From a bacterium (GTDB lineage: Bacteria > UBA8248): a stretch of 64,000 nucleotides of DNA. Positions 21,433 to 64,000 of the stretch are shown piece by piece; within the stretch, counting starts at the first letter, position 1, and the number at the start of each line of letters is the position of its first letter. The notes under the pieces are model-generated. The model saw only the letters and a list, made by a program, of their open reading frames with translations. It did no database searches and was not told the DNA's origin. The position numbers and the translations under genes were made by a program. The stretch spans positions 2,367,486 through 2,431,485 of the forward strand of contig OZ241326.1 of NCBI GenBank assembly GCA_965199855.1. The letters run 5' to 3'.

Positions 21433-21507
21433 TCCGGCGTAGCTCAACGGCAGAGCAATCGGCTGTTAACCGATGGGTTGTAGGTTCGAATCCTACCGCC
21501 GGAGCCA
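21433..21507 (+). tRNA. tRNA-Asn (anticodon GTT)
   Basis: Acceptor tccggcg/cgccgga, anticodon stem atcgg/ccgat with loop ctGTTaa, T-arm gtagg-ttcgaat-cctac, discriminator G, encoded CCA. Confidence 0.85.
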
Positions 21508-21577
21508 TGGGGGAGGGGGGCAACGGGCCGCCCATTGCAAGTTCTTGACTCCAAGACCGGCGAAAGGAGGCTTGACC

Positions 21578-23455
21578 GTGCTCTTTGCGGAAGCCAAAGA
21601 TAGGATCCGGAGCTGGATTCGCCGCCTTATCAAGTGGCTGACCAAGCCCGAATATCCCACAGAGGCACCCGAACCAATTCCATCGAACGAGGCAAGGCCG
21701 GAGACAACCCACATACTGGCGTCTCCCCCAACTACGGCATCGCCAAAGTCAGAACCGGCCTCTCCTTCCGACCCAGGCGAAGGCACCGACGCGGAACCCA
21801 AGACAACGGACGATTCAGCAAGCAAAGAAGAGCCCAAGAAAGAACCGCGCAAGATAGGACCGAGACGTATCAAGCCGGACAACAATCGCCAAAAACCAAA
21901 TCGCCCCGCACAACTCACCCGCCCCTTCACTCCCAGGGCGGAGTTGCTCTGCCGCCAAGCTCGGGGTTCATCCTGGGAGTTAATTCTGTCCGTTCCCGAA
22001 GAATGCGGCATTGTGAAAATACAACATGACAACAACCCCTTGTCAGTCGACGAAAACGGCGAATGTCGCCCGTCATCATTCTCCGGCACCCTGAAAGTTG
22101 AATACAGCGACGGAAAAACTGACGAGATTATCCCATTGGTCTGCGACAAGACGCCGCTGGTTTTTAAAATGCGGAACGGCTGGCAAGGGTCTGGCCGCAA
22201 AATTAGCGGAATTACTCGTGGGCACTTCATTGTTTTCACGCCTGCTGAATGGAAGCGAACGGGTCGCGTTCCGGTAGAAGCCGAGAACTGCGTGGACGCT
22301 GACTTCCGGGCGCACTACTTCCATGCGCGCAAGAACGACGCAAACGATGAAATTGGCGGATTTAAGGAATATGAAGTCCCGTTGACCCCAACCGGATTCG
22401 AGTTGGAAGGTACTAGAATTTTCGATGATTCTGAAGATGGGGAACTATTCGTTGATACAGTTCCAAGGGTGAAGCCCGCGTCCGGCATCGTCTGGGCGCG
22501 CGTGGGCGAAGAGCGGCAGAGAGGCTGGTCTGGAGAAAATTTCAGACCCGATGACAAATCTCTCAAGAAAGTTCTGAATGGCCGCCAGAGGCGATTTTAT
22601 GTCCGCGTCTATGACGACGCGCCCAAGTTGATGGACAGCGGCGAGTTCCGCTATTACGCGGATCTGCAAGATATTCAGGTGAATGGCGTATCGTATTCGC
22701 AGGACATGCTGTTGCTCCCCACGTCGGACGGGCATTCGCCAACAAGACTGCAATTCATTGCCCGGAATGGAGAGCTGATCTCCCAAGATCGGCTGGAATT
22801 GAAAGGAAACAACCCTCACGCGGCCATTACGCCAGATGGCGTTTTGACAATAGCCCCACACCCGGATGGCGATGAAATAACCTTAGTCTTAAAAGCCAAT
22901 ACAAGTAGCGTGGCCGTCAAGCTCCACTTGCCGCGCGTCTGGTGGAGGCTTGAGCGATCAGGAGAGGAGCCAAGCAGGTGGGGCGACCAACCCCTAAATA
23001 TGACGCGCGATGAGTTTCGAGATCGGGCCAATAAGAGCACCGTGATAAAATTGCGATTGCCTTCACGCATCAAATCTGCCGATGTGGGATTTGGTGATAA
23101 TCTGGACCGGAGACTTCCCATAGGGGACGGATTGCCACTTGGGAACTTTATCGATTATACGGAAATCGACAATCCATCAAGTGAAGAGGTCGAACTGCGA
23201 ATTCGATGCAATAGTGAAAGGCTAACTCTAATCCAACTTGCCGCTGACTTACCTGCCCCTACAAAGAAGCCTCTAACAAACAATATGCCAGACACTTGTC
23301 CAAGCGGCAACAAGGGATTCAGCTGCGGCGAATTGCGGAAGGCCAATCTCACAGCCGCCGATGCGAAACGCTTGCAATTACGTATCGACAGGCGACGCCG
23401 CAGCGAACACAATAGCAATATAGACAGGCTCATGGAGATTGGAAACGATGCCTGA
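21578..23455 (+). CDS. island protein A: 625-aa protein of unknown function (N-terminal amphipathic helix, Pro/Thr/Ser/Glu-rich linker, ~480-aa beta-rich C-terminal region)
   Basis: The track ORF starts inside the tRNA; the likely true start is GTG 21578, with GGAGG 8 nt upstream. The protein runs VLFAEAKDRIRSWIRRLIKWLTKPEY..., then a PTS/E-rich segment, then ...GHFIVFTPAEWKRTG... No nuclease, methylase, ATPase or other catalytic motif was recognised by eye. It overlaps gene B by 8 nt. Confidence 0.6.
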   Translation: MLFAEAKDRIRSWIRRLIKWLTKPEYPTEAPEPIPSNEARPETTHILASPPTTASPKSEPASPSDPGEGTDAEPKTTDDSASKEEPKKEPRKIGPRRIKPDNNRQKPNRPAQLTRPFTPRAELLCRQARGSSWELILSVPEECGIVKIQHDNNPLSVDENGECRPSSFSGTLKVEYSDGKTDEIIPLVCDKTPLVFKMRNGWQGSGRKISGITRGHFIVFTPAEWKRTGRVPVEAENCVDADFRAHYFHARKNDANDEIGGFKEYEVPLTPTGFELEGTRIFDDSEDGELFVDTVPRVKPASGIVWARVGEERQRGWSGENFRPDDKSLKKVLNGRQRRFYVRVYDDAPKLMDSGEFRYYADLQDIQVNGVSYSQDMLLLPTSDGHSPTRLQFIARNGELISQDRLELKGNNPHAAITPDGVLTIAPHPDGDEITLVLKANTSSVAVKLHLPRVWWRLERSGEEPSRWGDQPLNMTRDEFRDRANKSTVIKLRLPSRIKSADVGFGDNLDRRLPIGDGLPLGNFIDYTEIDNPSSEEVELRIRCNSERLTLIQLAADLPAPTKKPLTNNMPDTCPSGNKGFSCGELRKANLTAADAKRLQLRIDRRRRSEHNSNIDRLMEIGNDA

Positions 23456-26400
23456 AACTCGTGACATTGAGAGATGGGTTGATACGATTGGTGCTCGCTA
23501 CGAAAATTATTTGAAAACCTCGTTTTACTTCAAGGACTCGAAACTCCGTGAATCGTTTCAACATGCGTTACAGGGTGGCCGCCTGCTGAAAGGGCCTTTT
23601 CCCGAACCGGCGCGCGACTTCAAAAAAGGCGTAGACGCGAGGCAACTGGCGAAAGAATGTTTTCCTGACAGGGGCGGCGCTCTACTTCCGGCATTACGGA
23701 AAGGCGCTTTGTATGTCCATCAAGAGCGCGCCGTGCGTTGTACTCACACAGACCAGCGGAACATCGTGGTCGCCACCGGTACCGCCAGCGGCAAGACGGA
23801 GAGTTTTCTCTACCCGATTCTGTTCGAGTTGTACCGCCAATACTTGGCGGGAGAACTCAGCGAGCCCGGCGTGCGGGCCATGATCCTGTATCCGATGAAC
23901 GCGCTCGCCAACGATCAAAGAGAACGCCTTGGCGAAATTTGCGAGCAGCTACGCAAGGAGGGTTCAGATTTTGCCCCCATTTTCGGACAGTACATCGGAC
24001 AAACACCCGAAGATCAAAGAGACCGTCGGCGTAACGCCTCTACTCGGGAAGAGGAACGCCTGCCCGGCGAGTTGGTTTTCCGGGAAGAGATGCGGAACAA
24101 TCCGCCGCATATCCTGCTGACCAATTATTCCATGCTGGAATACCTTCTTATTCGTCCGAGCGACAGCCCGCTTTTCGACGTAGACCGAGGCAAACACTGG
24201 CAATTCATCGTGCTTGATGAAGCTCACCAGTACCGGGGCGCCAAAGGGATGGAGATGGGCATGTTAATCCGGCGTCTCAAGCAACGGTTGCGCGATGGAG
24301 GGCGCGAAGATCGTTTCCGCTGCATCGCCACCAGCGCGACCATCGCCACCGGCGAAGGCGAAGAAGACAAACAGGTCGTCGCGAAATTCGCCGAGGAACT
24401 CTTTGCCGAGCCTTTTCGGACATCCGGCATCATTTTGGGAGAACACGAACAACAGTCACTCAAAAAGGAGCCGCGTCGCTTCCATGCGTTCGCGCGCGCC
24501 TTGGAAGGGGCTTTTTTGCTCCATGATGACGGTGAGGATGCGGTCATCCTCAATCGCAAGAGAGAGGTTGGGTGCCGCGCCGAGCCCTTGGAAATCGCGT
24601 TATGCCGGGAATGCGGACAACACTATTACGTCGGCCGGGAAAATGATGGCAAGTTGAAAGAAGCGGTGCGAGATCCCAGTCATCCGAAATTTGGCGTGGA
24701 TTATTACCTGCCATTGGAAAGCGATAATGCCGCTTCTCATGTCTTATGCCGATGCTGCGGCCAACTCTCCGCCGACGGGTCTGCTTGCGATTGCGGCGAC
24801 AGCGCCTCAATTCTCGTCAAGAAGTGCGAATCTCATAAAGAACATCCGGATCACCTGAAGAAATGCGAAGCCTGCGGCTATAGCCGCGGCGGCATCGGCG
24901 ACCCTGTTCAGGAAATCGTGCACGGCTCCGACGGCCCCAACACCGTCATCGCGACCGCCCTTCACGAGTTGCTACCGGAAAGCAGGCGCAAGGTGCTGGC
25001 GTTCGCCGACAGTCGGCAGGAGGCCGCGTTCTTCGCCTGGTATGCTCAGGACTCCTATACGGAGGTACGCGACCGCAATTTGATGTTGCGCGCTTTGAAG
25101 GCTGGGGCAATCGATTCTGAAGGACTGTCCATTGACGACCTCAAAAACCGACTGTTCAAACAGTGGGAACAGTCTGGTCTGTTTGAGAGAGCGGATACCA
25201 GGGAAAGCAAGGACCGAAAGGTGCTGACGGCAATCCTCGGAGAAGCGTTGACGGACGAGAAGAGGCTGTCCTTAAGTGGAGTCGGTTTGGTCAGGTGGTT
25301 CGTCAAAATCCCGGACGACTTGAGACCGCCGGCCTCAATGCTGGAGCCGCCTTGGAATCTAACGGATGAAGAAGCGCGCCGCCTTCTCGCATATCTTTTA
25401 GACGAGTGGCGTGTGCGCTACGCCTTGGCTTTGCCGGACGGTGCAGGGACCCCGTTATGGAACGACGTATCACCCCTGCGGCGGCAACAGGCTTACGGTC
25501 TGGGCACCCCCGGCAAAAGAAAAAACATCGCAGAATGGGGCAGCTCCCAATCCGCAATCGTTGGTCACTTCCTGCGCCGGCTCCTTATGCGAAATGGACA
25601 GTCCGGCAATGACGACCATTCACAATCGATCATGCTGATGAAGGATGTATGGAGCGCATTGCGCGAGCGGGATAAAAAATATGGCCAAAAAGCCGACCAA
25701 ATTCTTTCGTCCGCTAACACAAACGGGACATTCCGCCTCAACTCGCGCTGGCTGCGGACCAAGCTCGCCGAGCCATCTGAAATTTGGGAGTGCGACACGT
25801 GCGCAAGCCTGAGCACCCACAACATTCACAACATCTGTCCTCGAAACGGATGCCCCGGAAATCTGTCGCCTGCCGGCCAATCACGGCTTGAAGAAAACCA
25901 CTATCGAATCCTTTACGAAAAACCCGGCCTGCCACCCACGCTATGCGCTGAAGAACATACGGCTCAAATCGAAAGCAGCGAGGCGCGCCAGAGACAGGAT
26001 CGCTTCAAAAGCGGACAAATACACCTCCTCAGTTCCTCAACCACGTTTGAGGTTGGCGTCGACTTGGGCGATCTCGAGGTCGTATTCCTCCGCAACGTGC
26101 CGCCGGAGCCGTTCAACTATACCCAGCGCGTCGGGAGGGCGGGACGCCGAGAAACGCCGGGATTGGCGCTGACCTACTGCCGCCGCAACCCACATGACTT
26201 GTACCACTACGAAGACCCGGAAAAGCGCGTGATAGAGGGAAAGGTGCAACCCCCAAGGCTCCGGATGACCAACGACAAAATCATCTCCCGGCACATGGCC
26301 GCCGTCGCTCTGTCCGCATTTTTCAAGAATGAGGGAAACGAGGAACGCTTCAGGAATGTCGAATCCTTCATCGGCGATTGGGAGAATCCTCGCGCCGTTT

Positions 26401-27716
26401 CGGACCTGAAGCAGTTTTGCGAAAACAACGAGGCGTTGAAGAATTCGCTACTCCGGAGCGTGCCGGAAGCCATGCGCGAAACAACCGGACTCAACAGCAA
26501 TGATTGGATTAAAATCATCGCCGGCCCGGACAGCCGCCTTGACCGAGCCGAGAAAGAAGTTTCCGACGACTATCAGCGCATGGAAGCGCTTGAAAAAGAG
26601 TACTCGGACAACAGCAAATATAGCGACGCGAAACGTATCAAGCAACGGAGGGATACCATCGCTAACGAACAAACCTTGACCTTCCTCTCACGCAAAGCCG
26701 TAATTCCCAAATATGGCTTTCCGGTTGACGTGGTGGAACTCGATACCCGGGAACTCGATACCCGGCCGCAAAACAGAAGTTCGGCAAGAGTATCGTTGCA
26801 AAGAGACCTGTCTCAAGCCATTGCCGAATATGCGCCGGGCGGTAAAGTCGTGGCGAACAAGCAAGAGTGGGAATCATGCGGTGTAAAAGTAATTTCCGGA
26901 AAGCAATTTCCGGTCAAGCGTTACGCTTACGACGATGCCCGCTATTTTCAGCAATGTGATGAAGAGGGCAATCTTCCAAACAGCAGAAGCAGAAGATACC
27001 TTTCTCCGGTCTTCGGTTTCGTGACACCGCTATTTGAGAAACCCAAGAAGCCGCGGGGACGAGCGCAACGCCTATACACAACACGACCGTTTTTTCCGGG
27101 TTTTGATGAAGAACCGGAATCCAAGGACCTGTTCGGGATTACGGTAACAAAAGCGCAACCGGGAAGCTTGGTCATCCTGTGCGAGGGGCGGAATCAGAAA
27201 GGGTTCTATATTTGCCGCACTTGCGGAAGCCACATGACGAAGCCAGCGAGCGCGCACAAGACGCCGGCAGGATCCAAATGTACCGAGAGATTAGAGAAAT
27301 TTTCGCTCGGGCACGAGTTGGTTACGGATGTAGTGCGCCTGCAATTTTCAGACTTGGGCGACCAGTGGGACGCTTACTCCCTCGCTTACGCCATACAGCT
27401 GGGCGCGTCGAAAACAATGGATGTGCCGGACACGGACTTGAACGTCACTATCACTGGCGACAAAGCATCGGACGAGACGGCGATTGTCTTATATGACAAT
27501 GTTCCCGGCGGTGCCGGTCTGGTGGCGCAGTTGGAACACGAGGGTATATTTCGAGAAATGCTCGGCAATGCCCGAGAACGGGTACAAGGCGGATGTGGCT
27601 GTGACTCAAGTTGCTACGGTTGTCTGCGCAGCTACCGCAACCAGTTCGCGCACCCGCACTTGAATCGCAAAAGAGCTCAAGCCTTTTTACCCGCCGTAGG
27701 CGTCGGGGCGGAATAG
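23448..27716 (+). CDS. island protein B: large DExH-box SF2 helicase with a Zn-ribbon insertion and C-terminal DUF1998/MZB Cys4 domain (DruE/MrfA/DrmA-like)
   Basis: The track start at 23439 is TTG; ATG 23448 gives MPETRDIERW... Motif I VVATGTASGKTESF, Ia ILYPMNALANDQ, II VLDEAHQY, III ATSATI, VI QRVGRAGRRETPG. An insertion between the RecA-like halves carries four CxxC pairs (LCRECGQHYY..., CRCCGQ, CDCGD, CEACGY). The C-terminus CRTCGSH...C..GGCGCDSSCYGCLRSYRNQFAHPHL matches the DUF1998 signature. Confidence 0.85.
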   Translation: MPETRDIERWVDTIGARYENYLKTSFYFKDSKLRESFQHALQGGRLLKGPFPEPARDFKKGVDARQLAKECFPDRGGALLPALRKGALYVHQERAVRCTHTDQRNIVVATGTASGKTESFLYPILFELYRQYLAGELSEPGVRAMILYPMNALANDQRERLGEICEQLRKEGSDFAPIFGQYIGQTPEDQRDRRRNASTREEERLPGELVFREEMRNNPPHILLTNYSMLEYLLIRPSDSPLFDVDRGKHWQFIVLDEAHQYRGAKGMEMGMLIRRLKQRLRDGGREDRFRCIATSATIATGEGEEDKQVVAKFAEELFAEPFRTSGIILGEHEQQSLKKEPRRFHAFARALEGAFLLHDDGEDAVILNRKREVGCRAEPLEIALCRECGQHYYVGRENDGKLKEAVRDPSHPKFGVDYYLPLESDNAASHVLCRCCGQLSADGSACDCGDSASILVKKCESHKEHPDHLKKCEACGYSRGGIGDPVQEIVHGSDGPNTVIATALHELLPESRRKVLAFADSRQEAAFFAWYAQDSYTEVRDRNLMLRALKAGAIDSEGLSIDDLKNRLFKQWEQSGLFERADTRESKDRKVLTAILGEALTDEKRLSLSGVGLVRWFVKIPDDLRPPASMLEPPWNLTDEEARRLLAYLLDEWRVRYALALPDGAGTPLWNDVSPLRRQQAYGLGTPGKRKNIAEWGSSQSAIVGHFLRRLLMRNGQSGNDDHSQSIMLMKDVWSALRERDKKYGQKADQILSSANTNGTFRLNSRWLRTKLAEPSEIWECDTCASLSTHNIHNICPRNGCPGNLSPAGQSRLEENHYRILYEKPGLPPTLCAEEHTAQIESSEARQRQDRFKSGQIHLLSSSTTFEVGVDLGDLEVVFLRNVPPEPFNYTQRVGRAGRRETPGLALTYCRRNPHDLYHYEDPEKRVIEGKVQPPRLRMTNDKIISRHMAAVALSAFFKNEGNEERFRNVESFIGDWENPRAVSDLKQFCENNEALKNSLLRSVPEAMRETTGLNSNDWIKIIAGPDSRLDRAEKEVSDDYQRMEALEKEYSDNSKYSDAKRIKQRRDTIANEQTLTFLSRKAVIPKYGFPVDVVELDTRELDTRPQNRSSARVSLQRDLSQAIAEYAPGGKVVANKQEWESCGVKVISGKQFPVKRYAYDDARYFQQCDEEGNLPNSRSRRYLSPVFGFVTPLFEKPKKPRGRAQRLYTTRPFFPGFDEEPESKDLFGITVTKAQPGSLVILCEGRNQKGFYICRTCGSHMTKPASAHKTPAGSKCTERLEKFSLGHELVTDVVRLQFSDLGDQWDAYSLAYAIQLGASKTMDVPDTDLNVTITGDKASDETAIVLYDNVPGGAGLVAQLEHEGIFREMLGNARERVQGGCGCDSSCYGCLRSYRNQFAHPHLNRKRAQAFLPAVGVGAE

Positions 27717-35638: not shown

Positions 35639-36370
35639 ATGTGCGGACGCTTCACCCTCACCGAACCCGCCCCCTGGCTCGCGGAAATCCTGGGGCCGGG
35701 CGCGGAGAGCCCAGAGGCGCTCGGAGAGATTCCCCCCCGCTACAACGCCGCGCCGGGGACGGAGATTCACATCGTCCGGGCGGCGGGGGAGACGCCGCGC
35801 GAACTCGCCCGCGCCCGCTGGGGGCTGGTTCCCCACTGGGCGAGAAGCCCCGACTTCGCCGCCAGGACCATCAACGCGCGCGCGGAGACGGCGGCGGAGA
35901 AGCCCGCCTTCCGCGCCGCCTTCCGCCGCAGGCGCTGCCTCGTGCCGGCGGACGGCTTCTACGAGTGGGCGGGAGATTCAGGAAAAAAGCGCCCCTGGTT
36001 CATCCACCTGAGCGGCGGGAGACCCTTCGCCTTCGCGGGTCTTTGGGAGTCCTGGCGCGGAGCGGACGGGGCGCGGCTCGATACCTGCGCGATTCTCACG
36101 ACGGAGGCGAACGAGCGGCTCGCCGCCCTCCATCCCCGGATGCCCGTCATCCTGCCCGAAAGCGCCCATGGCGCCTGGCTCGACCCGAAGGCGGGCCGCG
36201 CCCCGCAGGCGCTACGGGCGCTCCTGGGTCCCTGGCCGGCGGAGGACTTCGCCTGCTATCCCGTGGGCGAGCGGGTGAACAGCCCCGGAAACGACGACCC
36301 CGCCTGCCTCGAAAGACTCGCCCCGGAAGCCGCCCCGCCGCCGCGCCAGGGGTCGCTCTTCGGGGATTGA
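35639..36370 (+). CDS. SOS-response-associated peptidase (SRAP/YedK abasic-site processing protein)
   Basis: MCGRF N-terminus with catalytic Cys2; ...RYNAAPGTEIHIV...LVPADGFYEW. Confidence 0.85.
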   Translation: MCGRFTLTEPAPWLAEILGPGAESPEALGEIPPRYNAAPGTEIHIVRAAGETPRELARARWGLVPHWARSPDFAARTINARAETAAEKPAFRAAFRRRRCLVPADGFYEWAGDSGKKRPWFIHLSGGRPFAFAGLWESWRGADGARLDTCAILTTEANERLAALHPRMPVILPESAHGAWLDPKAGRAPQALRALLGPWPAEDFACYPVGERVNSPGNDDPACLERLAPEAAPPPRQGSLFGD

Positions 36371-36399
36371 CCGGAGAGCGGCCCAGGCGGGACGCCGGG

Positions 36400-38520
36400 T
36401 CCGCCCCCGGCGTGAGGGCCTTCGGGCGGGGAGGCTCCGTCTCGATCCGTCTCGGTTCCCGGCCCCCGTCGGGGCGCAAGTGCGGGCGGATGCGCGCAAA
36501 CGCCGCGGCCTTGCGAAATGACCTCTCCGGGAGCCTCTTTTTCGCACAATCCTTTTATTTTCAATGACTTGATATTTTTTCCGCGCTCCGAAGGGTCTTG
36601 AATTTGTCGAATAAAGGCGCGAATTTGCGGGATAAAGGCGTGAATTTGTCGGATTTTGTCGAAAATAGGATTGTTTTCATCATGGCGCGGACGACGCGCG
36701 AACGCCGCGCCTGAAACGCGCAGGGGCGCCCCCTCCTCGGCGCCGCCCCACAACTCCCGAGCCGCCCGTCGCCGGACGACAACCCCCGGATTCCGCAATC
36801 CTTCCTTCTCATCGGAATTGACGACGCGGGAACGGCGCGGGGCGACAAACGCCCTGACCCGCGCCCACGCCTTCGTCATCATTCGTATTCCGAAACCCAT
36901 GCGTTCGCCTCCTCCTTCTCGCGGCGGATTCTCGCGCATTCAGGGGAAAGCCCGACAGGCGCAAATGCGGGCAAATGCGCAATCGATTCCGAATGGGCGG
37001 AAGGATTCTCCCGATGCGGGGAGAGACGCGGGCGGACAACCACAGGGGGTTGTCCCTACGGGGCCGGATGGCGTGATTCACCCGTAGGGGACGCATATAT
37101 GTGTCCCGCGCCGTTCCCGTTTGTGGCGCGGGCGGTTCTCGAACCGCCCCTACGGGGTTTTCGCGCGGCGGCGGGACGGGAATCTGGCGAAGGACAACCA
37201 CGGGGGTTGTCCCTACGGGCCAAGGCATCGCCAACCCACAACGGGGCGCAAGAATGCGCCCCCTACGGGAATCGGATGGCGTGATTCGATTGTAGGGGCG
37301 GTTCGCGAACCGCCCGTTTGGGGATGGTTGCCTATGGGTGATGATGGGGCGTAGGGGCGGCCCCTCCCCGGGGCCGCCCCACAATTCGGGAACCGCCCGT
37401 TTTGAAGGAAGACAATCAAAACCCTGGATTCCGGCCTTCGCCGGAATGACGGCGGAATGAGGACGCGGTGCGGACAACCACAGGGGGTTGTCCCTACGGC
37501 GGGGCGCATGAATGCGCCCCCTACGGCGAGGGTTTCCCCTCCGGCGCGCGCCGCCGCAAAACCCGTCATTCCGGCGAAGGCCGGAATCCAGAACCGGGGC
37601 GCGCGGCGGCAAACGGGCGTTCCCGGTCAATCCATGCGCGGGTTCATGGTTCCGTAGGGGCGGCTCGCGATTGGCGGGGCGGGTCGTTCACGAACGACCC
37701 CTACGGGATTGTCGCGCGGCGGCGGGACGGGAATCCGGCGAAAGACAACCCCCCGTGGTTCGCTACGGAGGGCGAGCGCGGTTCGCCTCCGCAGGGGCGG
37801 CCCCTTCCCGGGGCCGCCCCACAATTCGTGAACCGCCCGTTTTGAAGGAAGACGATTAAAACCCTGGATTCCGGCCTTCGCCGGAATGACGGCCGGGGAT
37901 GCCCCTTACGGCGGGGAACGCGGGGTTCATGGTTCCGTAGATGAAACGCGAGAGCGTTTCCATTCATGCGTCCCGCGCCGTTTCCGTTGATTCGATGCGG
38001 GCGGTTCTCGAACCGCCCCTACGGGGTTTTCATCCGGCGGAATGAGGACGCGGTGCGGACAACCACAGGGGGTTGTCCCTACGATTTGATCCGCGTTATC
38101 GCCGGGCCCGCAACGGGCGCAAGAATGCGTCCCCTACGAAACTGTCGCCGCCCTCGCCTTTGTAGGGGACGCATATATGCGTCCCGCGCCGTTTTCCATC
38201 AATGGCGACGCGGGCGGTTCGCGAACCGCCCCTACGGGGTGGGTCGTCTATGGATGACGACGACGGGCCGCCCGTTTTGACGGGAAGACAATCAAACCTC
38301 CGGATTCCGGCCTTCGCCGGAATGACGGCCGGGGATTCCCCCTACGGCGGGGAACGCGGGGTTTGTGACTTCGCAGGGGCGCCCCCTCCCCGGGGCCGCC
38401 CCGCAATTCGGGAACCGCCCGTTGGGGAGCGGCCAGCCTCGCCGGGTTCCGCAATCCCTCCGCCCCGTCGGGGAATCTCTCCTCCTTCGGGCGGGACGGC
38501 TCCTCACGCCAGCCTTCTCA
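36400..38520. repeat. large cluster of REP/BIME-like mosaic palindromic repeats (GTAG/CTAC-headed palindromes of at least 6 unit types)
   Basis: Units recur many times here and at four other loci, each flanked by gtagg/cctac. Examples: ggacaaccacagggggttgtccctacgg, cggttcgcgaaccgcccctacgg, ggcgcatgaatgcgccccctacgg, attccggccttcgccggaatgacgg, ggcggcccctccccggggccgcc, ggattccgcaatccctccgcc. Confidence 0.85.
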
Positions 38521-39397
38521 CCCCCGGGAATTCCTCCTCGACGCGCAGGTCGCGCTCGTCGTGGCCGGCGAAGAGGAGGCCGGGGGAGGCCGCCATGTCC
38601 TTCACGGCGTCCAGGGCGCGCAGGGCGTCGTCCACGTGGACGTGGACGCCCGGCGGAATCATCGACTCGAAGCTGCGGTAGAGACAGGCCGCGTCCACCG
38701 CCAGCGCCGCCCAGCCCCCCTTCGCCCGGAAGCGGACGACCTGGAGGCCGGGCGTGTGCCCGCCCACCCGGTGGAGGCGGACGCCGTCGGCGATTTCCGC
38801 CTCGCCGTCCACGAGCTCCAGGCGGCCCGCCTCCAGCAGCCGCTCGGCTTCCGCCAGATCGCCCAGAAAATGGTTGAGGAAGTGGTATGCGCCCGCGTCG
38901 CTCCGCCAGAAGTCGAGCTCGCGCCTCTGGAGCCAGAACCGCGCGGAGGAGAACAGCCGGGGCGAGGCGAAATGATCCCAGTGCAGGTGGCTCACGACGA
39001 GCCGCTCCACCTCCGAGGGTCTGAGTCCGAAATGCGCGAGAAGCTCCCGCTGGGAGCGGTAGCCCTCGTAGTCGGGATTGCGCGCCCGCTGCGCCTCCTC
39101 GCCGAAGCCGGTGTCCACCACCACGGGCGCGCCGCCCCCCTCGGGCATGAGCAGCCAGAAGAAGTAGGGCAGCCGCCGCGTCCGCCCCGACTCGCTCAGA
39201 TACAGCAGCCAGGAGGCGTCGCACCGACGCCAGCCCTGGCACAGGGCGTAGAGCCGCCAGGTCGCCTCGCGCAAGATGCGGTCCTCCCCCTTTTGTTGTC
39301 CGCGCCCGCCGATTATGCCATTATTTTCGAGGACGCGAACTTCTACGGCCCGGACAACCGCGAACCACCCCCGAAGGGCGCCTGTCTTGGACAACAT
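38504..39397 (-). CDS. MBL-fold metallo-hydrolase (AHL-lactonase-like)
   Basis: HLHWDH (HxHxDH) zinc motif in VVSHLHWDHFAS. The N-terminal start is uncertain; the annotated Met of the track ORF would overlap mrpA. Confidence 0.7.
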   Translation of the reverse strand: MLSKTGALRGWFAVVRAVEVRVLENNGIIGGRGQQKGEDRILREATWRLYALCQGWRRCDASWLLYLSESGRTRRLPYFFWLLMPEGGGAPVVVDTGFGEEAQRARNPDYEGYRSQRELLAHFGLRPSEVERLVVSHLHWDHFASPRLFSSARFWLQRRELDFWRSDAGAYHFLNHFLGDLAEAERLLEAGRLELVDGEAEIADGVRLHRVGGHTPGLQVVRFRAKGGWAALAVDAACLYRSFESMIPPGVHVHVDDALRALDAVKDMAASPGLLFAGHDERDLRVEEEFPGVRRLA

Positions 39398-41732
39398 CCT
39401 CATCGCCGTGTTCTTCCCGTTTCTGGCGGCGCTCATCGTCCCCCGGTTCGCCGCGCGATTCCGCCGGCGCGCCGCGTGGTTCGCCATGGCGGCGCCCCTC
39501 GCAAGCCTCGGGGCGCTGCTCTCCCTCTACGGCGAATGGGCGGCGGGGGGCGGGAAGACCCTCGTCCGCCCCCTCTCCTGGGTGCCGGCGGCGAACGTGG
39601 AAGTCTCCTTCATGACGGACGGCCTGAGCCTCATGTGGGGCTTTCTGGTGGCGGGCATGGGCGCGCTCATCGTCCTCTATTCGCATTGGTATCTCCCCGA
39701 AGACGAGGCGCTCGGGCGCTACTACGGCTTTCTGCTCGCCTTCATGGGGTCGATGCTCGGGGTGGTGTTCTCGGATCACCTGCTCTCGCTCTTCATCTTC
39801 TGGGAGCTGACGAGCGTCACCTCGTTCTTCCTCATCGGCTTCTGGTCGGAGCGCGGCGCCTCGAACTACGGCGCGGCCAAGGCGATTCTCATCACCGGAA
39901 GCGGGGGGCTCGCCATGCTGGGGGGCTTCCTGCTCCTGGGCGAGGCGGCGGGCGAGTGGCGGCTCTCGCGGCTCATCCTCACGCCCGACGCGGCCGCGAA
40001 GGTCTCCCTGGGCGTCTTCCTGCTCATCATCCTGGGGGCGGCGACCAAGAGCGCGCAGTGGCCCTTCCACATCTGGCTGCCGAACGCCATGGAGGCGCCC
40101 ACGCCCATCAGCGCCTTCCTGCACTCGGCGACGATGGTGAAGGCGGGGGTCTATCTGCTCTCGCGCTTCTACCCGATTCTGGGGGCGCACCCCGCCTGGG
40201 GCTACGTCGTGACGGGCTTCGGCATGACGACGATGATCGCGGGCGGCCTGCTCTCCCTGCGCGCCCATGACCTCAAGGCCATCCTCGCCTACGGGACGAT
40301 CAGCCAGCTGGGCCTCCTCGTCACCTTCCTGGGCTACGGGGGGCGGGGCGCCGTCGTGGGCGCGACGCTCCACCTCTACAACCACGCGGCGGCGAAGGCG
40401 GCGATGTTCATGACGGTGGGCGTCATCGACCACGAGGCGGGCACGCGCGACGCGCGGCTGCTGGGGAACCTGCGGAAGCTCATGCCGAAAACCCACCTCC
40501 TCGCGCTCCTCGCCGCGCTCAGCCTCATCGGCGTCCCGCCCCTGGGCGGCTTCATCACCAAGGAGATGCTCTACGAGGCGAGCCTGCGCCCCGGAGGCCC
40601 GGGCGCGTGGGGCTGGTTCTGGCCCTGGCTCACCGTTCTGGCGGGCGCGTTCACCGCGCTCTATCACCTGCGCTTTCTGGGCGAGCCCTTCTGGCGGGCG
40701 GCCGAGGGGGAGGCGCCGAAGCGCCCGCACGACCCGCCCTGGGGGATGCTCGCCGCCCCCGCCGCCCTCGCGCTCCTCGCGCTCGCCTTCGGCCTGGCGC
40801 CGTGGATCATCCAGGACGCCCTCGTCGCGCCGGCGGCGGAGGCGACCCTGGGCGGAGGCGCGCGGCTCGACCTCCGCCTGGGTCTCTGGCACGGGGTGAA
40901 CGCGCCCCTGCTCATGTCTGTCCTCACCATGGCGCTGGGCACCGCGCTCTACTTCGGCTTCGCGCGCGTGAAGGCGCTGCTCGACGCCTCGGCGCGCGCG
41001 TGGGGGAGCGCCCCCGCTCCCGACAGAATATACGACGCCTGCATCGGCTGGATGCGCGGCGGGGCGCGGGAGATCCTCCTCCTCCTCCAGGACGGGAACC
41101 TGAGAAGATACATGCGCTGGACGATGGCGGCCCCCGCCGTCCTCGTCCTGGGCGTCGTCTGGCCGATGCGCTGGGGGGAGAGCGTCTTTCCCCGGACGCT
41201 CGAGGGCGTCTCGCCCCTCCTCGTCGTGATCGCGGCGATGATCGCGGCCTCCGCCCTCGCCACGGCGCTCTTCCGGCGGCGCATCCCGGCGATTCTCTCC
41301 CTCGGCGTGATGGGCTATTCCATCTCGGGGCTGTATCTGCTCCTCAAGGCGCCGGATCTGGCGCTCACCCAGATCATGGTCGAATCGGCCTCGGTCGCGC
41401 TGTTCCTGCTCGTGTTCCGGCGCCTGCCCGAGCTCGAACCCGTCCCCTCCTCCCCCGCCAGAAAGGCGCGGGACTGGGGAATCGCCGCCGCCCTGGGCGC
41501 CTTCACGGCGCTGGGCATGGCCGCCGCCATGAACGCGCACCACTTCCGGACGATCGCGGACTACTTCATGCGCACGAGCAAGCCGGTCGCCGGCTTCAAG
41601 AACGTGGTGAACGCGATCATCGTCGACTACCGCGGCTACGACACGCTGGGGGAGATTACCGTGCTCGTCATCGCGGGCATCGCCATCTACGCCCTCACGC
41701 GGCTGACGGGGGGGGTTCGATGGGATCACTGA
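39383..41732 (+). CDS. mrpA: Na+/H+ antiporter subunit MrpA/MnhA (with fused MrpB-like domain)
   Basis: NuoL-like multi-TM protein ([28 protein letters not shown]). Start uncertain (TTG 39383 proposed); the track ORF begins upstream in a GC-rich leader. Confidence 0.8.
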
Positions 41733-54940: not shown

Positions 54941-54959
54941 GGCAGGCGCCTCCTGTCGT

Positions 54960-55520
54960 TGTCCTTCTTGAATAAGAAACTGTAGGGGGACAAGCCGCAG
55001 CTTGTCCTCCCTGCGCAAAATCAAGGCGCGGCCGCAGGGCCGCATTCATGCGCTTCGTTCGAGGGCCGGCGGTGAAGACGCCCCGGCCTCCCGCAGGGGG
55101 CGTTCGCGAACGCCCCGCCGCCTGCGATGCGAATCCTTCCCAAAAACGGGCGGCCGCAGGAGTCGCCCCTACGGAACGTCCCCCACGGGGGACCATCCCA
55201 AACGGGCGGTTCGCGAATTGTGGGGCGGCCCCGGGGAGGGGTCGCCCCTACGGAAACCTGAAAACCCCGCCCCCGCGCCAACGGGGACGCGCCCCGCCGT
55301 AGAGGCAACCCCCGTGGCTGTCCTTCGCTGGGTTCCCGTCCCGCCGCCGCGCGAAAATCCCGTAGAGGGCGTTCGAGAACGCCCCGCCCGGCTCCGGCTT
55401 CCGGCGAAGGCCGGAATCCAGGGGGTTGGTTTTCTTCCACGCAAACCCTGCGAAGGCGAGTCGTCGGGAATGTAGGGGCAGCCCCGCGGCTGTCCTTCGC
55501 TGTCGGCATGGGCAGGCGCG
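54960..55520. repeat. REP/BIME-like palindromic repeat cluster
   Basis: Contains cggttcgcgaa, ggcggccccggggaggggtcgcccctacgg, attccggccttcgccgga and tgtaggggcagccccgcggctgtcc units. Confidence 0.8.
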
Positions 55521-55624
55521 GGGGGCCTGTCCCCGTGAGGCCCTTTGACGCCCTCCTTGCCGCGCCGCCTTCGCTCTGCTAGCGTTGCCGCGAATCCATT
55601 TCTCATCATCGGGAGGAGCGCGCG

Positions 55625-57872: not shown

Positions 57873-58199
57873 GGAGAATTCTCCCCGGGGAAGGGGCGCG
57901 GCCCGAACCGCGGGACAACGGCGCGGGCCTCGGGCGCGAAAAGCGAAAGGGACGAATTCAGGGGATAATACCCCGGGGATCAGGCAAAGGGAAGCGCAGC
58001 CGGCGCCCCTCGCTCCATATCCGCAAGCCCGGCGTCAGCGCGAGGGTCTCGCTTCGCTCCCTGGCGAATTGTTTCCTCGCGTCCATGCTGCGAACATAAA
58101 AAAAGCCACCAAGGTCCGCGTCATCGAGAAACATCCTCAATGAGAGGCGTGGCGGCTACGTTGGAGAAAACGTATCCGCGCATCGCATTCACGTCAAGG

Positions 58200-58500
58200 T
58201 AAAAGCGAATCCGAAAAGGCGAGAGCATATCTGACGCGCGCTGAAGGATATTTCGCTTTTCATCGTCATTGCGGCGAAAGCCGCAATCCAGGACCGACGG
58301 GAAAACAAGGGATTCCGCAATCCCTCCGCCTGGTCGGGATTGACGCCGGAATGACGACGGGGGACGCGGGCTTTATGATTCGTAGGGGCGGTTCGGGAAC
58401 CGTCCGTTTTGGAACGGCAACCCCCGGATTCCGCAATCCCTCCGCCCTTCCGGGTAGGGTGGGACGACTTGCCCGGCGTCCCTTCCTGCCGCATGATGGG
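58200..58500. repeat. REP/BIME-like palindromic repeat cluster
   Basis: ggattccgcaatccctccgcc (x2), gacgccggaatgacgacg and tcgtaggggcggttcgggaaccg units. Confidence 0.75.
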
Positions 58501-58539
58501 GTGGTTTTGCGCCGCCCCGCTCGCGTTCGGAGGACTTTC

Positions 58540-59933: not shown

Positions 59934-59939
59934 CCGCGG

Positions 59940-61040
59940 CGCGCCGGGACGCATGAATGCGCCGCGCGTTCGTAGATGGAATCGCCTTCGCATTCGTAGG
60001 GACAGGTCGCGACCTGCCCCTACACAAAACATGAACGCCCCGCCGCCTCCGATGCGAACGCCTCTTGAACACGGGCGGCCATTCCTTGCGGAACCGTCCC
60101 CGCGCCCCGGTTCTGGATTCCGGCCTTCGCCGGAATGACGGGCTTTGAGTCGCGCCCGCCGGGATCGTAGGGACGCCCCCCTGTGGTTGTCCTTCCGCCG
60201 TAGGGGCGGTTCGTGAACCGCCCACATCGCCATCAATACAAAACGGCGCGGGACGCATGAATGCGTCCCCTACAAAACCGTCGCACCCTCCCCGCCGTAG
60301 GGGGCGCATTCTTGCGCCCCGCCCTGTGGTTGTCCGCCCGCGTTCTTCCTCCGTCGGGACGATCCTTCCGCCCTGTCGGAATGGATCGCGCATTTGCCCG
60401 CATTTGCGCCTGTCGGGCCTTTCCGCGAACGCGCGAGAATCCGCCGCGAGGGGGAGGCGGCGAGCATGGGTTTCGGGAAGCGGATGATGACGAAGGCGGG
60501 GGCGCGCGTCAGGGCGTTTTTCGCCCTCGGCCGTTCTCGCGTCGTCAATTCCGATGAAGAGGCAAGATTGCGGAATCCGGGGGTTGTCGTCCGGCGACGG
60601 GCGGCTCGGGAGCTGTGGGGCGGCCCCGGGGAGGGGCCACCCCTGCGCGTTTCAGGAGTGACGCGCGCGCGTCGTCCGCGTCATAATAAAGACGACGCTA
60701 TTTTCGACAAAATCCGACAAATTCACGGCTTTATCCCGCAAATTCGCGCCTTTTTTCGACAAATTCAAGACCCTTCAGGGCGCGGAAAAAACATCAATAC
60801 ATTGAAAATAAAAGGATTATGGGAATCAGGGGGCGCCGGGAGGGGGTATTTCGCAAGGCCGCGGCATTTGCGCGCATTTGCCCGCACCCGCGCTTCCCGC
60901 GCGCTGAGGCGCCGCCCGGCCAACCCCCCGCAGAGGCTGCTCTCCAGGAAGCGGCGGGCGCGGCGGCTTGCGGCTTTTCGCGAAAGGCGCGATGATGAGG
61001 CGTCCTTTTGGCGAACGGATTTTCCCTTGAACCCATGAAG
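59940..61040. repeat. REP/BIME-like repeat cluster including the inverted copy of the ~0.5-kb 36.42-36.94 kb segment
   Basis: The reverse complement of 36420-36935 aligns by eye to 60460-60990. Matching stretches include atgggtttcgg..gatgatgacgaaggcg..gtcagggcgttt..cgtcgtcaattccgatga..gattgcggaatccgggggttgtcgtccggcgacgggcggctcgggag..tattttcgacaaaatccgacaaattcacg. Confidence 0.8.
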
Positions 61041-61050
61041 GAGAGCGCCC

Positions 61051-61443: not shown

Positions 61444-62523
61444 GTGCGGATCGCCTTCCTGAACTCCTGGATGCTCGACGCGGCGCGGGGCTCCGGCACG
61501 GCGGCGGCCATCGCGGGCCTGGCGGACGGGCTGGAGGCGAACGGCCACGAGGTGGAGATCGTCGGCCCGCGCGAGCGCGCCTCGAGCCTTCTCCTCCAGC
61601 GGCTCCTCTACAACTTCGAGCTCGGGGAGCGGCTCCCTCCGGACGGCTTCGACCTCGTCACGGGCTTCGACATCGACGGCTTCTGGCTGGACGTCCGCGC
61701 CCCCTTCGTCGTCTTTCTGCACGGCGTGGCGGCGGACGAGATGCGCTTCGAGCGCGGCGCGCCGCGCCGGTATCTCCGCGCCCTCTCCCACCTCGAGCGC
61801 GCCAACGCGCGGCGCGCGGGCAGGGTCCTCCTCACCAGCGAATACAGCCGCCGCGCGGCCTGCGAGGCGTATGATCTTCCGCCGGAGAAGGTCGGCGTGG
61901 TTCCGAACGGGATTCATCCGGCCCACTGGGAGCGCGTCCGGCGGATGAAGGGGCCGCCGGGCCGGACCATCCTCTCGGTGGCGCGGCAGTATCCCCGGAA
62001 GAACACGCGGAGCCTGATTCGCGCCATGCCGCGGGTGCTCGCCGCCCTCCCCGACGCGAGGCTGCGCGTCGTGGGCGGGGGACCGAGCCTGGGCGCCCTG
62101 CGAAGGCAGGCGACCAGCCTGGGGCTGGGCGGGGCGGTGACGCTTCTGGGCGAGATTCCCGACGATGAGGCCGCGCGCCTGGAATACGCGGCGGCGGACG
62201 TGTTCTGCCTCCCCTCGCTCCAGGAGGGCTTCGGCATCGCGTTTCTGGAGGCCATGGCGGCGGGGCTGCCCGTCGTGGGGCTGCGCGCCGCGGCCGCGCC
62301 CGAGGTCGTGGGCGAGGCGGGCGTTCTCCTGCCGCCCGGGGACGCCCCCGGCGGGGAGGCCGACGCGCGCGCCCTGGCCGACGCGCTCATCGGCCTCCTG
62401 AAGGACGAGGCGCTGCGCGAGAGGCTCGGACGCGCCGGCGCCGCGCGCGCGGCGGCCTACGACTGGCGCGCCGTCGCCCGCCGCTTCCTGGAGGAGGCCG
62501 CGCCCCTCCTTGCGGCTCCGTAG
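61444..62523 (+). CDS. GT4-family glycosyltransferase
   Basis: C-terminal E-x7-E region ...PSLQEGFGIAFLEAMAAGLPVVG; GTG start. Confidence 0.8.
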   Translation: MRIAFLNSWMLDAARGSGTAAAIAGLADGLEANGHEVEIVGPRERASSLLLQRLLYNFELGERLPPDGFDLVTGFDIDGFWLDVRAPFVVFLHGVAADEMRFERGAPRRYLRALSHLERANARRAGRVLLTSEYSRRAACEAYDLPPEKVGVVPNGIHPAHWERVRRMKGPPGRTILSVARQYPRKNTRSLIRAMPRVLAALPDARLRVVGGGPSLGALRRQATSLGLGGAVTLLGEIPDDEAARLEYAAADVFCLPSLQEGFGIAFLEAMAAGLPVVGLRAAAAPEVVGEAGVLLPPGDAPGGEADARALADALIGLLKDEALRERLGRAGAARAAAYDWRAVARRFLEEAAPLLAAP

Positions 62524-63180
62524 GGGCGACCCCTCCCCGGGGCCGCCCCGCAATTCGGGAACCGTCCTCATTCAAGGGGCATTCGCATCACGGGCGGCGG
62601 GGCGTTCCCGAACGATCCCTGCGGGATTTTCACGCATCGGCGGGGCGGGATGCGGCGAAGGACAATCCCCGTGGTTGTTCGCTGCGGAGGGCGGGCGCGG
62701 TTCGTCTTCGTAGGGGCGGTTCGAGAACCGCCCGTTTTGAAGAAAGACAATCAAAACCCTGGATTCCGGCCTTCGCCGGAATGACGGGTTTGAGGCGGCG
62801 CTCGCCGGAGGGGAAATCCTCGCCGCCGTTCGAGCGGCGTCTTCAAACAGGGAAAGGGTTGGCCTTTCGTCGTCATTCCGGCGAAGGCCGGAATCCCGAA
62901 CCGGCGCGCGCGGCGGAAAAGAGCCTTTCCGGCCCATCCATCCGTGGGCCGCGTATATGCGCCCCGCGTTGTTTTTCATGGACGGCGACGCGGGCGGCCT
63001 TCGCGCGAACCGCCCCTACGGGATTTTCGCGCCTTGCCGGCGCGCGAACCCGGCGAAGGACAACCACAGGGGGTTGTCCCTACGCCCCACGTCTTTCGGT
63101 GACAAAAAACGGGCGCGGGGATCGTCGGTGGATCCCCGCGCCCGGTTTCTTCAAATGCGGGCGGTTCGCGCGAAGGCCGC
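62520..63180. repeat. REP/BIME-like palindromic repeat cluster
   Basis: gtaggggcgacccctccccggggccgcc, cggttcgagaaccg, attccggccttcgccggaatgacgg (both orientations) and ggacaaccacagggggttgtccctacg. Confidence 0.8.
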
Positions 63181-63188
63181 CCGCGCGC

Positions 63189-64000
63189 CTAGAACTTCAC
63201 GCCGAGGCTCGCGTCGCCGCCGTATTGGTTCGTGTCGCTTCCGCTCGCCTCGTAGTGGCCGGAGACGGTGAGCGCCGCGCTCTCGCCCAGCGCCACGGTG
63301 CCGCCCACGACCACGCGCGCCGTCGTCGGCTCGACCTTCGTCCAGATTCTGGCGTCGGCGACCTTCACGGTCGTCTCGTCGGAGAGCTCGCGCTCGATGT
63401 CCGCCGAGAGGAACGCCCGCGCGCCCCGCCCCCACGCCTCCAGGGTGAAGCCCGCCCGCGCCCGCGCGCTCCGCGCCTCCCGCAGCGAGACCCGCGCGGC
63501 GGAGCCGACCGAATCCGCGAAGTCGTCCAGGTCCGCCGACGACCAGACCAGGCCCAGGCGCGGGGTGACGGTGATCGCGCCGCCGGCGAAGGACATCCTC
63601 CGCCCGACCTCGACGCCCGCCGCCGCGCCCGCGCCGCTCGCGTCCTTCTCCAGCGCGCCGCTGATGGTCGAGGCGATCTCGGCCTCGAACCAGGTCGCGT
63701 GCCCGGAGAAGTCCAGATGGAAGCCGCCCCACGCCCAGGTCGCCGAGGCGCCCGCGCCCGCGCCGTTCACGACGATCTCGCCCGTGCCGGACATCTTCGC
63801 CTTCGCCTTCAGAACGTGCGCCGAGAGGCCGAAGCGGGAAATCCTCCCGCCCAGGTCAACCCCCGCGCGCCCGCCGGATATGCTGTAGTCGTAGCTGAGC
63901 TCCTCCGCCGAGGCCGCCTTGTCCGCCTTCCACTCCCCGCGCGACGCCTCCCCGCGCGCCCAGAAGCCGCTCGCCCCGCGCGGGGCGGAGGTGCGCTCGG
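63189..64000 (-). CDS. autotransporter / outer-membrane beta-barrel domain protein (C-terminal part; gene continues beyond the window end)
   Basis: Ends ...YGGDASLGVKF with a C-terminal aromatic residue; alternating-hydrophobic beta-strand pattern. The frame stays open upstream of the track Met (..VLKAKAKMSGTGE..). Confidence 0.6.
   Translation of the reverse strand, partial: ERTSAPRGASGFWARGEASRGEWKADKAASAEELSYDYSISGGRAGVDLGGRISRFGLSAHVLKAKAKMSGTGEIVVNGAGAGASATWAWGGFHLDFSGHATWFEAEIASTISGALEKDASGAGAAAGVEVGRRMSFAGGAITVTPRLGLVWSSADLDDFADSVGSAARVSLREARSARARAGFTLEAWGRGARAFLSADIERELSDETTVKVADARIWTKVEPTTARVVVGGTVALGESAALTVSGHYEASGSDTNQYGGDASLGVKF

Follow-up and report, generated by a model that had tools for sequence, protein, structure and literature searches.

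REPs (repetitive extragenic palindromes) are known as short units in which a GTAG tag precedes a palindrome and which gather in mosaic, extragenic clusters, the bacterial interspersed mosaic elements or BIMEs (PMC3733652, PMC6006769). Di Nocera et al. 2013 distinguished a GTAG and a CGTC superfamily and reported a preference for gaps between convergent or co-directional genes (PMC3733652). For subclass 2.4 of the associated TnpA-REP enzymes (REP-associated tyrosine transposases, RAYTs), Quentin et al. 2018 described long REPs with a GGG foot, double-foot REPs of the form GT[AG]G...C[TC]AC and, as a hallmark, an in-frame REP doublet between the HUH and Tyr motifs of the transposase gene (PMC6006769); this TnpA-Y1 subclass is probably Group 4 of the RAYTs classified by Bertels (PMC5581495). 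Here we analyse a 64,000-nucleotide stretch of a bacterial chromosome (the window; contig OZ241326.1, positions 2,367,486 to 2,431,485, GTDB lineage UBA8248), in which palindromic repeats of this anatomy occupy five intergenic loci. We consider it very probable that the five loci are BIME-like mosaics of REPs, built from six classes of the GTAG superfamily and one CGTC class, class D.

The closest match among the described systems is provided by the subclass 2.4 REPtrons, which likewise have long REPs with a foot of three G-C pairs, double-foot variants (window 59996-60023) and RAYT genes flanked by REPs, and which are scattered over many phyla. They differ in that the RAYT genes described here are known from relatives and not from the window. 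The REP/BIME system of E. coli with its TnpA-REP (YafM; PDB 4ER8) shares the GTAG tag followed by an imperfect palindrome, the Y1/HUH enzyme, and clusters in which different REP types alternate in orientation and are joined by linker motifs. However, protein similarity to it is weak (E = 0.12), the stems in the window are shorter, perfect and free of bulges, and here there are more REP classes per genome, in arrays of up to ~1.7 kb. In the REPIN-RAYT system of P. fluorescens, inverted REP doublets (REPINs) are also the likely mobile unit and several REP classes each have their own RAYT (PMC3116915). That system is described as vertical within lineages, whereas here an identical 27-mer occurs in genomes labelled as different phyla, and the doublets of the window are often heterologous, pairing class F with class B. 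Both tags in one genome, dimers in opposite orientation, a position mostly in convergent or co-directional gaps and an occasional overlap with the end of an open reading frame (ORF; here a stop codon in a GTAG head) are features shared with the two superfamilies of Di Nocera et al. (PMC3733652). Our classes are placed by tag and anatomy, not by sequence comparison with the 24+4 families of that study; on this basis class D fits the CGTC superfamily.

Repeat units of the five loci

Two catalogues of the repeats were compiled. The strict search required GTAGG and, immediately after it, a hairpin whose stem spans 8 bp or more with no more than one mismatch and whose loop measures 2-8 nt. The window contains 26 such units, whereas 100 dinucleotide-preserving shuffles yielded 0.17 on average and never more than 2. 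Of the 26, 25 lie inside the five intergenic loci. The remaining unit (62434-62460) is intragenic, has a different, G+C-only sequence and is probably a chance occurrence. The second catalogue, made by matching the whole window to the consensus of nine classes with up to 20% mismatch, contains 43 units (A 5, A2 3, B 7, C 5, F 2, E 7, G 1, D 9, H 4), which amount to 30 GTAG-headed palindromes in six classes, nine CGTC-headed units and four short H motifs. All 43 fall within the five intergenic gaps between 36.4 and 63.2 kb, and no unit was detected at 1-36 kb or elsewhere outside these loci. In this catalogue 17 of the 43 units match their consensus without a mismatch, and many others are degenerate, with GCAG heads or 3-8 mismatches.

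A G+C-rich palindrome with a GGG/CCC stem foot, preceded by a 5' GTAG, is the general plan of a unit. Classes B, C, E and F follow it with perfect or near-perfect palindromes (for example GTAG-GGGCGGTTC-GCG-GAACCGCCC); in classes A and G the stem begins with GGA instead, and the single class G unit (59996-60023) is of the double-foot type, GTAGGG...CCCTAC. Class E is a longer composite unit, and the nine class D units read CGTC-ATTCCGGC-GAAG-GCCGGAAT. Stems are 8-10 bp long, reaching 11 bp in the class E fold, and loops measure 2-6 nt. Folding of the DNA yielded the expected hairpins, with z scores of -2.2 to -4.7 for single units and pairs.

A preliminary description of this DNA had proposed a GTAG-headed palindromic family, and the palindromes it listed were found at all five loci, both on reading the sequence and in the two catalogues. 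Its family name holds for six classes; the attccggc...gccggaat unit, however, carries a CGTC head (CGTCATTCCGGCGAAGGCCGGAATCC). The bracketing by ccgtagg...cctacgg, which it regarded as usual, proved to be a minority arrangement (for example the double foot at 59996-60023), the GTAG foot of most units being one-sided. The REP interval it placed at 36400-38520 includes a copy of a 565-bp repeat at 36472-37040, and only the remainder of that locus is REP array. Likewise, the repeats do not occupy about 4.7 kb: the REP-bearing spans sum to ~3.7 kb within 5.2 kb of intergenic DNA. The recurring peptide RELWGGPGEGxPLR, which it attributed to spurious ORFs, is indeed the translation of the class E unit.

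The units are arranged in recurrent modules, namely F(+)-hairpin linker-B(-) pairs, A(-)C(-) tandems and D(-)...D(+) inverted pairs. As in a BIME, mixed REP types stand in both orientations with recurrent linkers, although the alternation is not strict. The two intact F/B pairs fold differently: the minimum-free-energy fold of the first (37084-37153) is closed via the outer CCGTAGG/CCTACGG bases, whereas that of the second (38162-38235) leaves the GTAG/CTAC bases unpaired. At the edge of locus 5, the GTAG head of a class E unit contains the TAG stop codon (62521-62523) of the family 4 (GT4) glycosyltransferase gene, whose homology to the sister orthologue stops 13 nt short of this codon. It follows that the 3' end of the glycosyltransferase gene was remodelled by the cluster edge, its last codons coming from the repeat cluster.

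Dispersal and transposase genes in related genomes

The nearest relative available was the sister genome OZ251456.1 ('MAG: bacterium'; MAG, metagenome-assembled genome), a 3.09-Mb chromosome with 86-92% nucleotide identity to the window in the syntenic segments compared. The exact class A 27-mer GGACAACCACAGGGGGTTGTCCCTACG occurs in at least 33 separate 8-kb stretches of this chromosome, from 24 kb to 2.96 Mb, so that the repeats are interspersed and not local. This high-copy dispersal is seen in the sister; our view of the window's own chromosome covers five loci within 27 kb. The sister genome carries A, C, F and B REPs in mosaic arrays with recurrent linkers, among them recurrent C(+)/linker/A(-) modules. 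Exact cores of classes D and E were absent from ~260 kb of sister loci, save for one match to an E tail motif; a one-mismatch D copy and E-like copies are readable in two of these loci (L040 and L095). This near-absence as exact cores suggests a lineage-specific expansion of the two classes.

Comparison with the sister also points to turnover. The gap of locus 3 measures 617 bp and contains four units in the window, whereas the orthologous gap in the sister measures 163 bp and has no REPs; such a presence/absence difference is the pattern expected of inserted DNA. Synteny with the sister breaks within locus 4 (window 59945-60964 against L099/L038 of OZ251456.1). The genes on the left correspond to ~2.12 Mb of the sister chromosome and those on the right to ~0.03 Mb in the opposite orientation, and the breakpoint coincides with the REP array and one copy of the 565-bp repeat. 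Short-read contigs from the same population, 98.9-99.3% identical to the window, stop inside locus 1, as is expected where assemblies meet repeats.

RAYT genes were sought using a sequence of E. coli YafM as first bait, which gave weak matches that were confirmed by motif regular expressions, tblastn, Pfam and NCBIfam. Six RAYT-like genes of ~190 codons were found in 8-kb stretches around the REP 27-mer (L046, L056, L058, two in L078, and L088), two of them in sister-genome loci (L088 and L056). Their products contain the motifs MPNHxHG and WQRSFYDHVIRD...YIxxNP. The five of the six proteins that were scanned score 26-34 bits against Pfam Y1_Tnp (PF01797; threshold 23), and three scanned against NCBIfam reach 61-70 bits for REP_Tyr_transpos compared with 17.6-26.4 for IS200. 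Their lone PDB match is a weak one, to the E. coli TnpA-REP structure 4ER8.

These genes are associated with the repeats. Class A doublets lie on both sides of the L046 gene and the first L078 gene (L078a) and only downstream of the L088 gene, and class F REPs lie on both sides of the L056 gene; on a metagenome contig (L105), an F+C module flanks on both sides a gene whose protein is 84% identical to that of L056. In five of the six genes (L046, L058, both in L078, and L088) an in-frame REP doublet stands between the HUH and Tyr motifs, as in GTA GGG GAC GGC CCC CGT GCC GTC CC...GGA CAA CCA CAG GGG GTT GTC CCT ACG, which encodes VGDGPRAVP...GQPQGVVPT. The paralogue L078b has a different doublet at the same protein position, and L056 has there a degenerate single F-like palindrome alone. 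By these hallmarks, as distinct from a phylogeny, the cognate enzymes in relatives are assigned to TnpA-Y1 subclass 2.4. Together, unit anatomy, extragenic mosaic clusters, dispersal in the sister and the RAYT link in relatives support the REP/BIME interpretation offered in the preliminary description; it had suggested seeking a RAYT gene in the genome, and those found here belong to relatives.

These data allow us to propose how the clusters arose. Each GTAG unit would fold as single-strand DNA into a hairpin whose 5' GTAG stays unpaired, and this hairpin, as the family of the enzyme suggests, would be the substrate cut and rejoined by a Y1/HUH RAYT (TnpA-REP). Units would spread as singletons or as inverted doublets (REPINs), would accumulate where insertion is tolerated, mainly downstream of genes, and the clusters would later be reshuffled by recombination and local duplication. 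The cognate subclass 2.4 RAYT genes, REP-flanked and with an in-frame REP doublet between HUH and Tyr, lie outside the window, in the sister genome and related metagenome contigs. RAYT cleavage and transposition, present activity in this organism and any role for the host, for instance in stabilising mRNA 3' ends or binding proteins, are points that we infer by analogy.

Several observations weigh against this account. Locus 3 lies between divergent genes, a less usual position for REPs, and CGTC units have no known dedicated transposase (PMC3733652). The scores of 61-70 bits for NCBIfam NF047646 are under its curated cut-off of 80 bits, although it is the best family by far and the insert encoded by the REP splits or weakens the match. 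As the preliminary description had stated, the window lacks a RAYT gene: tblastn with the six RAYT-like proteins revealed none. In addition, none of the proteins that cluster at 90% identity with either sister RAYT comes from the window's 3,043,534-bp contig, and this contig is absent among the best 120 matches of each search with a sister RAYT, a search that divergent paralogues and pseudogenes would escape. Possibly the window's elements are relics, or a more divergent enzyme acts on them.

What else the repeats could be

The first of these options has the most to be said for it. If the units were REPs by descent in a genome that had lost its RAYT genes, the clusters would now change by recombination, duplication and decay alone; we regard this as possible though, on balance, rather unlikely. 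Such a history would accord with the lack of a sister-type RAYT relative of at least 90% identity on the 3.04-Mb contig and with the many degenerate units, and parts of locus 1 resemble local duplications, with blocks of E and D units spaced 440 bp and 436 bp apart. Against it stand the 17 perfect units and the scarcity of exact D and E cores in the sister loci, which suggests an expansion confined to the lineage, and the RAYT searches extend to the best 120 matches each, beyond which pseudogenes or divergent paralogues would have gone unseen.

The inverted D(-)/D(+) pairs (37426-37589 and 62761-62896) resemble terminal inverted repeats enclosing 84-112 nt, and the second folds as a single 144-nt hairpin (-64.6 kcal/mol, z = -11), as might be expected of miniature inverted-repeat transposable elements derived from a conventional DDE insertion sequence and not acting as RAYT substrates. 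We consider such an origin very improbable. The units are hairpins of 24-49 nt tagged with GTAG or CGTC, not terminal repeats of 15-30 bp bounding a fixed body, they occur singly and in many combinations, and they both flank and sit within Y1 transposase genes.

Terminators are expected between convergent genes, the setting of two of the five loci, and downstream of a gene, the setting of two more, and the palindromes might instead be regulatory hairpins (terminators, attenuators or protein-binding sites) that evolved locally without a mobile origin. However, the units lack T-tails, and locus 1 contains one terminator-like site where 3.5 are expected. Moreover, identical sequences of 24-27 nt, loops included, stand both at unrelated loci and in 51-71% G+C genomes that bear different phylum labels, and locus 3 shows presence and absence at an orthologous site. 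The identity across genomes effectively refutes a local origin, which we hold to be scarcely tenable; a host function may nevertheless have been acquired secondarily.

A degenerate CRISPR array, suggested by short palindromes clustered in non-coding DNA, is next to impossible given at least seven repeat sequences in both orientations, 'spacers' that are themselves repeated linkers, units dispersed singly across the sister chromosome and, contrary to the refuting pattern named in the preliminary description, no constant repeat-spacer period in the REP part of locus 1 (Tandem Repeats Finder). The absence of periodicity and the shortfall of terminator-like sites exclude CRISPR and intrinsic terminators. 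We also considered attC sites of integron cassettes and rejected them. The class A REP had no matches in viral contigs.

A shared 27-mer and an AT-rich companion element

The class A 27-mer was scanned as an exact string against one genome per GTDB species. It was found in at least 101 stretches of at least 34 MAG assemblies, in multiple copies. Among the listed matches, the record titles name Nitrospirales/Nitrospira (15), Latescibacterota (5), Nitrospinota (3), Arenicellales (1) and 'bacterium' (10). Since many of these assemblies are complete chromosomes, mis-binning is not at issue, and the examined stretches range from 51 to 71% G+C. A REPIN-like doublet, GTAGGGACAGGCCCCCGTGCCTGTCC-N-GGACAACCACAGGGGGTTGTCCCTAC, read GTAGGGACAGGCCCCCGTGCCTGTCC-N-GGACAACC..., has the 27-mer as its second half in most of the stretches inspected from other genomes, and exact class B and F cores are likewise present in other lineages. 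The nearest named relatives of the window's organism, as judged by IlvD, are labelled Nitrospinota (76-78% identity), and its population is matched in 'PANK22-1 ... METAG' assemblies.

The 27-mer is also the most conserved stretch of 27 nt in three RAYT genes, with 25 of 27 columns identical compared with 49% overall. In L058 (541-627), the flanking doublet repeats the 12 coding bases 5' of GTAG of the in-gene copy, and in L088 (5574-5654) it repeats the whole spacer of the in-gene copy, which hints that in-gene and dispersed copies exchange sequence. These shared spacer and coding bases, together with the conservation of the 27-mer, are an emphasis that we did not find in the published account of subclass 2.4 (PMC6006769). 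Homologues from Acetothermia, Chloroflexota, Omnitrophota and others carry a similar insert, VGAGPRACP...GQPQGVAPT, indicating that the doublet is an old feature of the clade.

We tentatively suggest, with less than even confidence, that unrelated bacteria of a shared host-associated community swap a REP-RAYT pool horizontally, the in-gene doublet acting as a DNA-level master copy that would seed new copies after transfer. Several of the MAG names presumably point to sponge or coral holobionts, which literature searches did not confirm, and these searches found nothing relevant on REP/RAYT in sponge symbionts. Against exchange, the RAYT proteins accompanied by the 27-mer share just 57-62% identity, so that either no transfer is recent or the proteins belong to several paralogous lineages; much of the pattern could follow from an ancient, vertical inheritance in which the REP is strongly constrained. 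The exact identity of the 27-mer may come from exchange among bacteria sharing a habitat, or from the constraint that enzyme and coding frame impose on it.

A second repeat accompanies the REP arrays. The two 565-bp copies of the window are inverted, 87% identical and 23 kb apart, and each forms the far end of a REP array. Reading from the gene 3' end through the array into the element, both start with GCATTTGCCCGCATTTGC; an E-like REP and an H motif lie within each copy, followed by an AT-rich core with phased CGACAAATTC-like motifs. An analogous element with the same start motif is present in the sister genome in at least 11 copies (e.g. L036 6679-7200) and comprises an AT-rich core of ~265 nt, >90% identical among copies, and a CCGATCG-repeat tail; blastn gave no alignment between this core and that of the window. 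In six of the seven loci examined, the gene upstream of the sister element is an autotransporter paralogue, and downstream genes have either orientation. Given that these paralogues are 30-62% identical to one another and the cores >90%, the element is far younger, or more homogenised, than the genes. The paralogue family itself (window 63189-63998; sister L006, L018, L036, L038, L061 and L065) has C-terminal beta-domains ending in ...RF, and a REP array follows each member in the loci examined.

In the whole window, Rfam at gathering thresholds found two tRNAs and nothing else; for locus 1 and the sister element, Rfam at E <= 1 returned chance-level small RNA (sRNA) matches or nothing. RNA folding of the sister element gave z scores near 0 for either strand. 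Sigma-70 promoters and terminators, sought in loci 1 and 4 and in the sister element, were at or near shuffle expectation, with two weak promoter-like sites in locus 4 and none in locus 1 or the sister element. The AT-rich core had no matches in viral contigs and none in JGI metagenomes. The 565-bp element may serve the array grammar as a module to which proteins bind, or it may be cargo that REPs carry between them.

The genes flanking the five loci, defined by frame analysis of third-position G+C (GC3) and by Pfam matches, are ordinary chromosomal genes. They encode an SRAP peptidase, a metallo-beta-lactamase (MBL)-fold hydrolase, an Mrp antiporter subunit, a PNPOx-like protein, a D-serine-dehydratase-like protein, a DUF6282 protein, a pterin-4a-carbinolamine dehydratase, the GT4 glycosyltransferase and the autotransporter. 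The coordinates of the repeat features are collected in Table 1.

Table 1. Positions of the five loci, the REP classes and the 565-bp repeat in the window
Feature	Position	Strand	Context or content
Locus 1	36371-38503		2133-bp gap, convergent: SRAP gene 35639-36370 (+), MBL-fold gene 38504-39487 (-); 23 repeat units and copy 1 of the 565-bp repeat
Locus 2	54941-55624		Gap between two co-directional (+) genes; E(-) 55203-55251, A2-like, D-like; other GTAG hairpins 54982-55007, 55362-55384, 55472-55495
Locus 3	57873-58520		Gap between divergent genes; D variant 58264-58289, H 58310-58331, B 58382-58405, H 58426-58447
Locus 4	59934-61050		Gap between two co-directional (+) genes; G double-foot 59996-60023, then D, A-like, B, C, C, then 565-bp copy 2
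Locus 5	cluster 62520-63188, gap 62524-63188		Convergent GT4 gene 61444-62523 (+) and autotransporter gene 63189-... (-); E(+), A2-like, B(+), D-/D+ pair 62761-62896, F-like/B-like pair, A(-)
Class A REP	37034-37059	-	GTAGGGACAACCCCCTGTGGTTGTCC
Further A or A2	37192-37216, 37472-37497, 38057-38082, 63058-63083	-	
Degenerate A/A2 copies	55299-55323, 60167-60192, 62656-62680	+	
F/B inverted heterologous pair	37084-37153		F(+) GTAGGGGACGCATATATGTGTCCC, hairpin linker, B(-) GTAGGGGCGGTTCGAGAACCGCCC
F/B pair, second copy	38162-38235		
F/B pair, degenerate copies	37937-38022, 62946-63015		
Class C REP	37243-37266	-	GTAGGGGGCGCATTCTTGCGCCCC
Other class C	37501-37524(-), 38114-38137(-), 60250-60273(-), 60297-60320(+)		
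Class B REP	37292-37315	+	GTAGGGGCGGTTCGCGAACCGCCC
Other class B	37999-38022(-), 38212-38235(-), 58382-58405(+), 60200-60223(+), 62710-62733(+)		
Class B variant	37681-37704	-	
Class E composite	37351-37399	+	GTAGGGGCGGCCCCTCCCCGGGGCCGCCCCACAATTCGGGAACCGCCCG
Other class E	37791-37839(+), 38373-38421(+), 55203-55251(-), 62520-62568(+)		
Class D inverted pair	37426-37451(-), 37564-37589(+)		CGTCATTCCGGCGAAGGCCGGAATCC; span 37426-37589 encloses one A and one C REP
Other class D	37866-37891(-), 38302-38327(-), 55394-55419(+), 58264-58289(+), 60115-60140(-)		
565-bp repeat copy 1	36472-37040	+	Bounded by GCAAATGCGGGCAAATGC-like motifs; 21-nt x2.7 tandem 36599-36654 in the AT-rich core, E-like REP 36720-36768, H motif 36788-36809
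565-bp repeat copy 2	60329-60893	-	E-like REP 60598-60646(-)

Two further features of the window lie outside the repeat clusters. An island of low G+C (21433-27716; 52-58% compared with ~68% elsewhere) starts directly after a tRNA-Asn gene (21433-21507). It encodes a protein of 660 aa without a Pfam or PADLOC match (21473-23455) and a helicase of 1425 aa (23439-27716) with DEAD, Helicase_C and MrfA Zn-binding domains, which matches DruE in PADLOC (E ~1e-154). These matches suggest a Druantia type III-like defence island that has inserted at the tRNA gene. A putative cyclase gene (PF04199; 52359-53165, -) lies in the segment 52337-53198, where the orthologous site of the sister measures 42 bp.

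Repeats of the REP/BIME kind, the GTAG and CGTC superfamilies and RAYTs of the subclass 2.4 type are already known. In this window the REP clusters account for ~3.7 kb, for spurious ORFs, for at least one stop codon (gene 61444-62523) and for broken short-read assemblies, and one cluster coincides with a synteny breakpoint relative to the nearest sequenced relative. Of greater interest are an identical REP in genomes labelled as several phyla and an AT-rich element that ends REP arrays. The usual picture of REPIN-RAYT systems is one of lineage-bound replicators passed on vertically. The 27-mer is found in four named taxa of at least three phyla as well as in unclassified genomes, and if this reflects horizontal exchange, it would offer a tractable system for studying movement between hosts. 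Exchange of this kind would also bear on why subclass 2.4 transposases keep their own substrate in their coding sequence.

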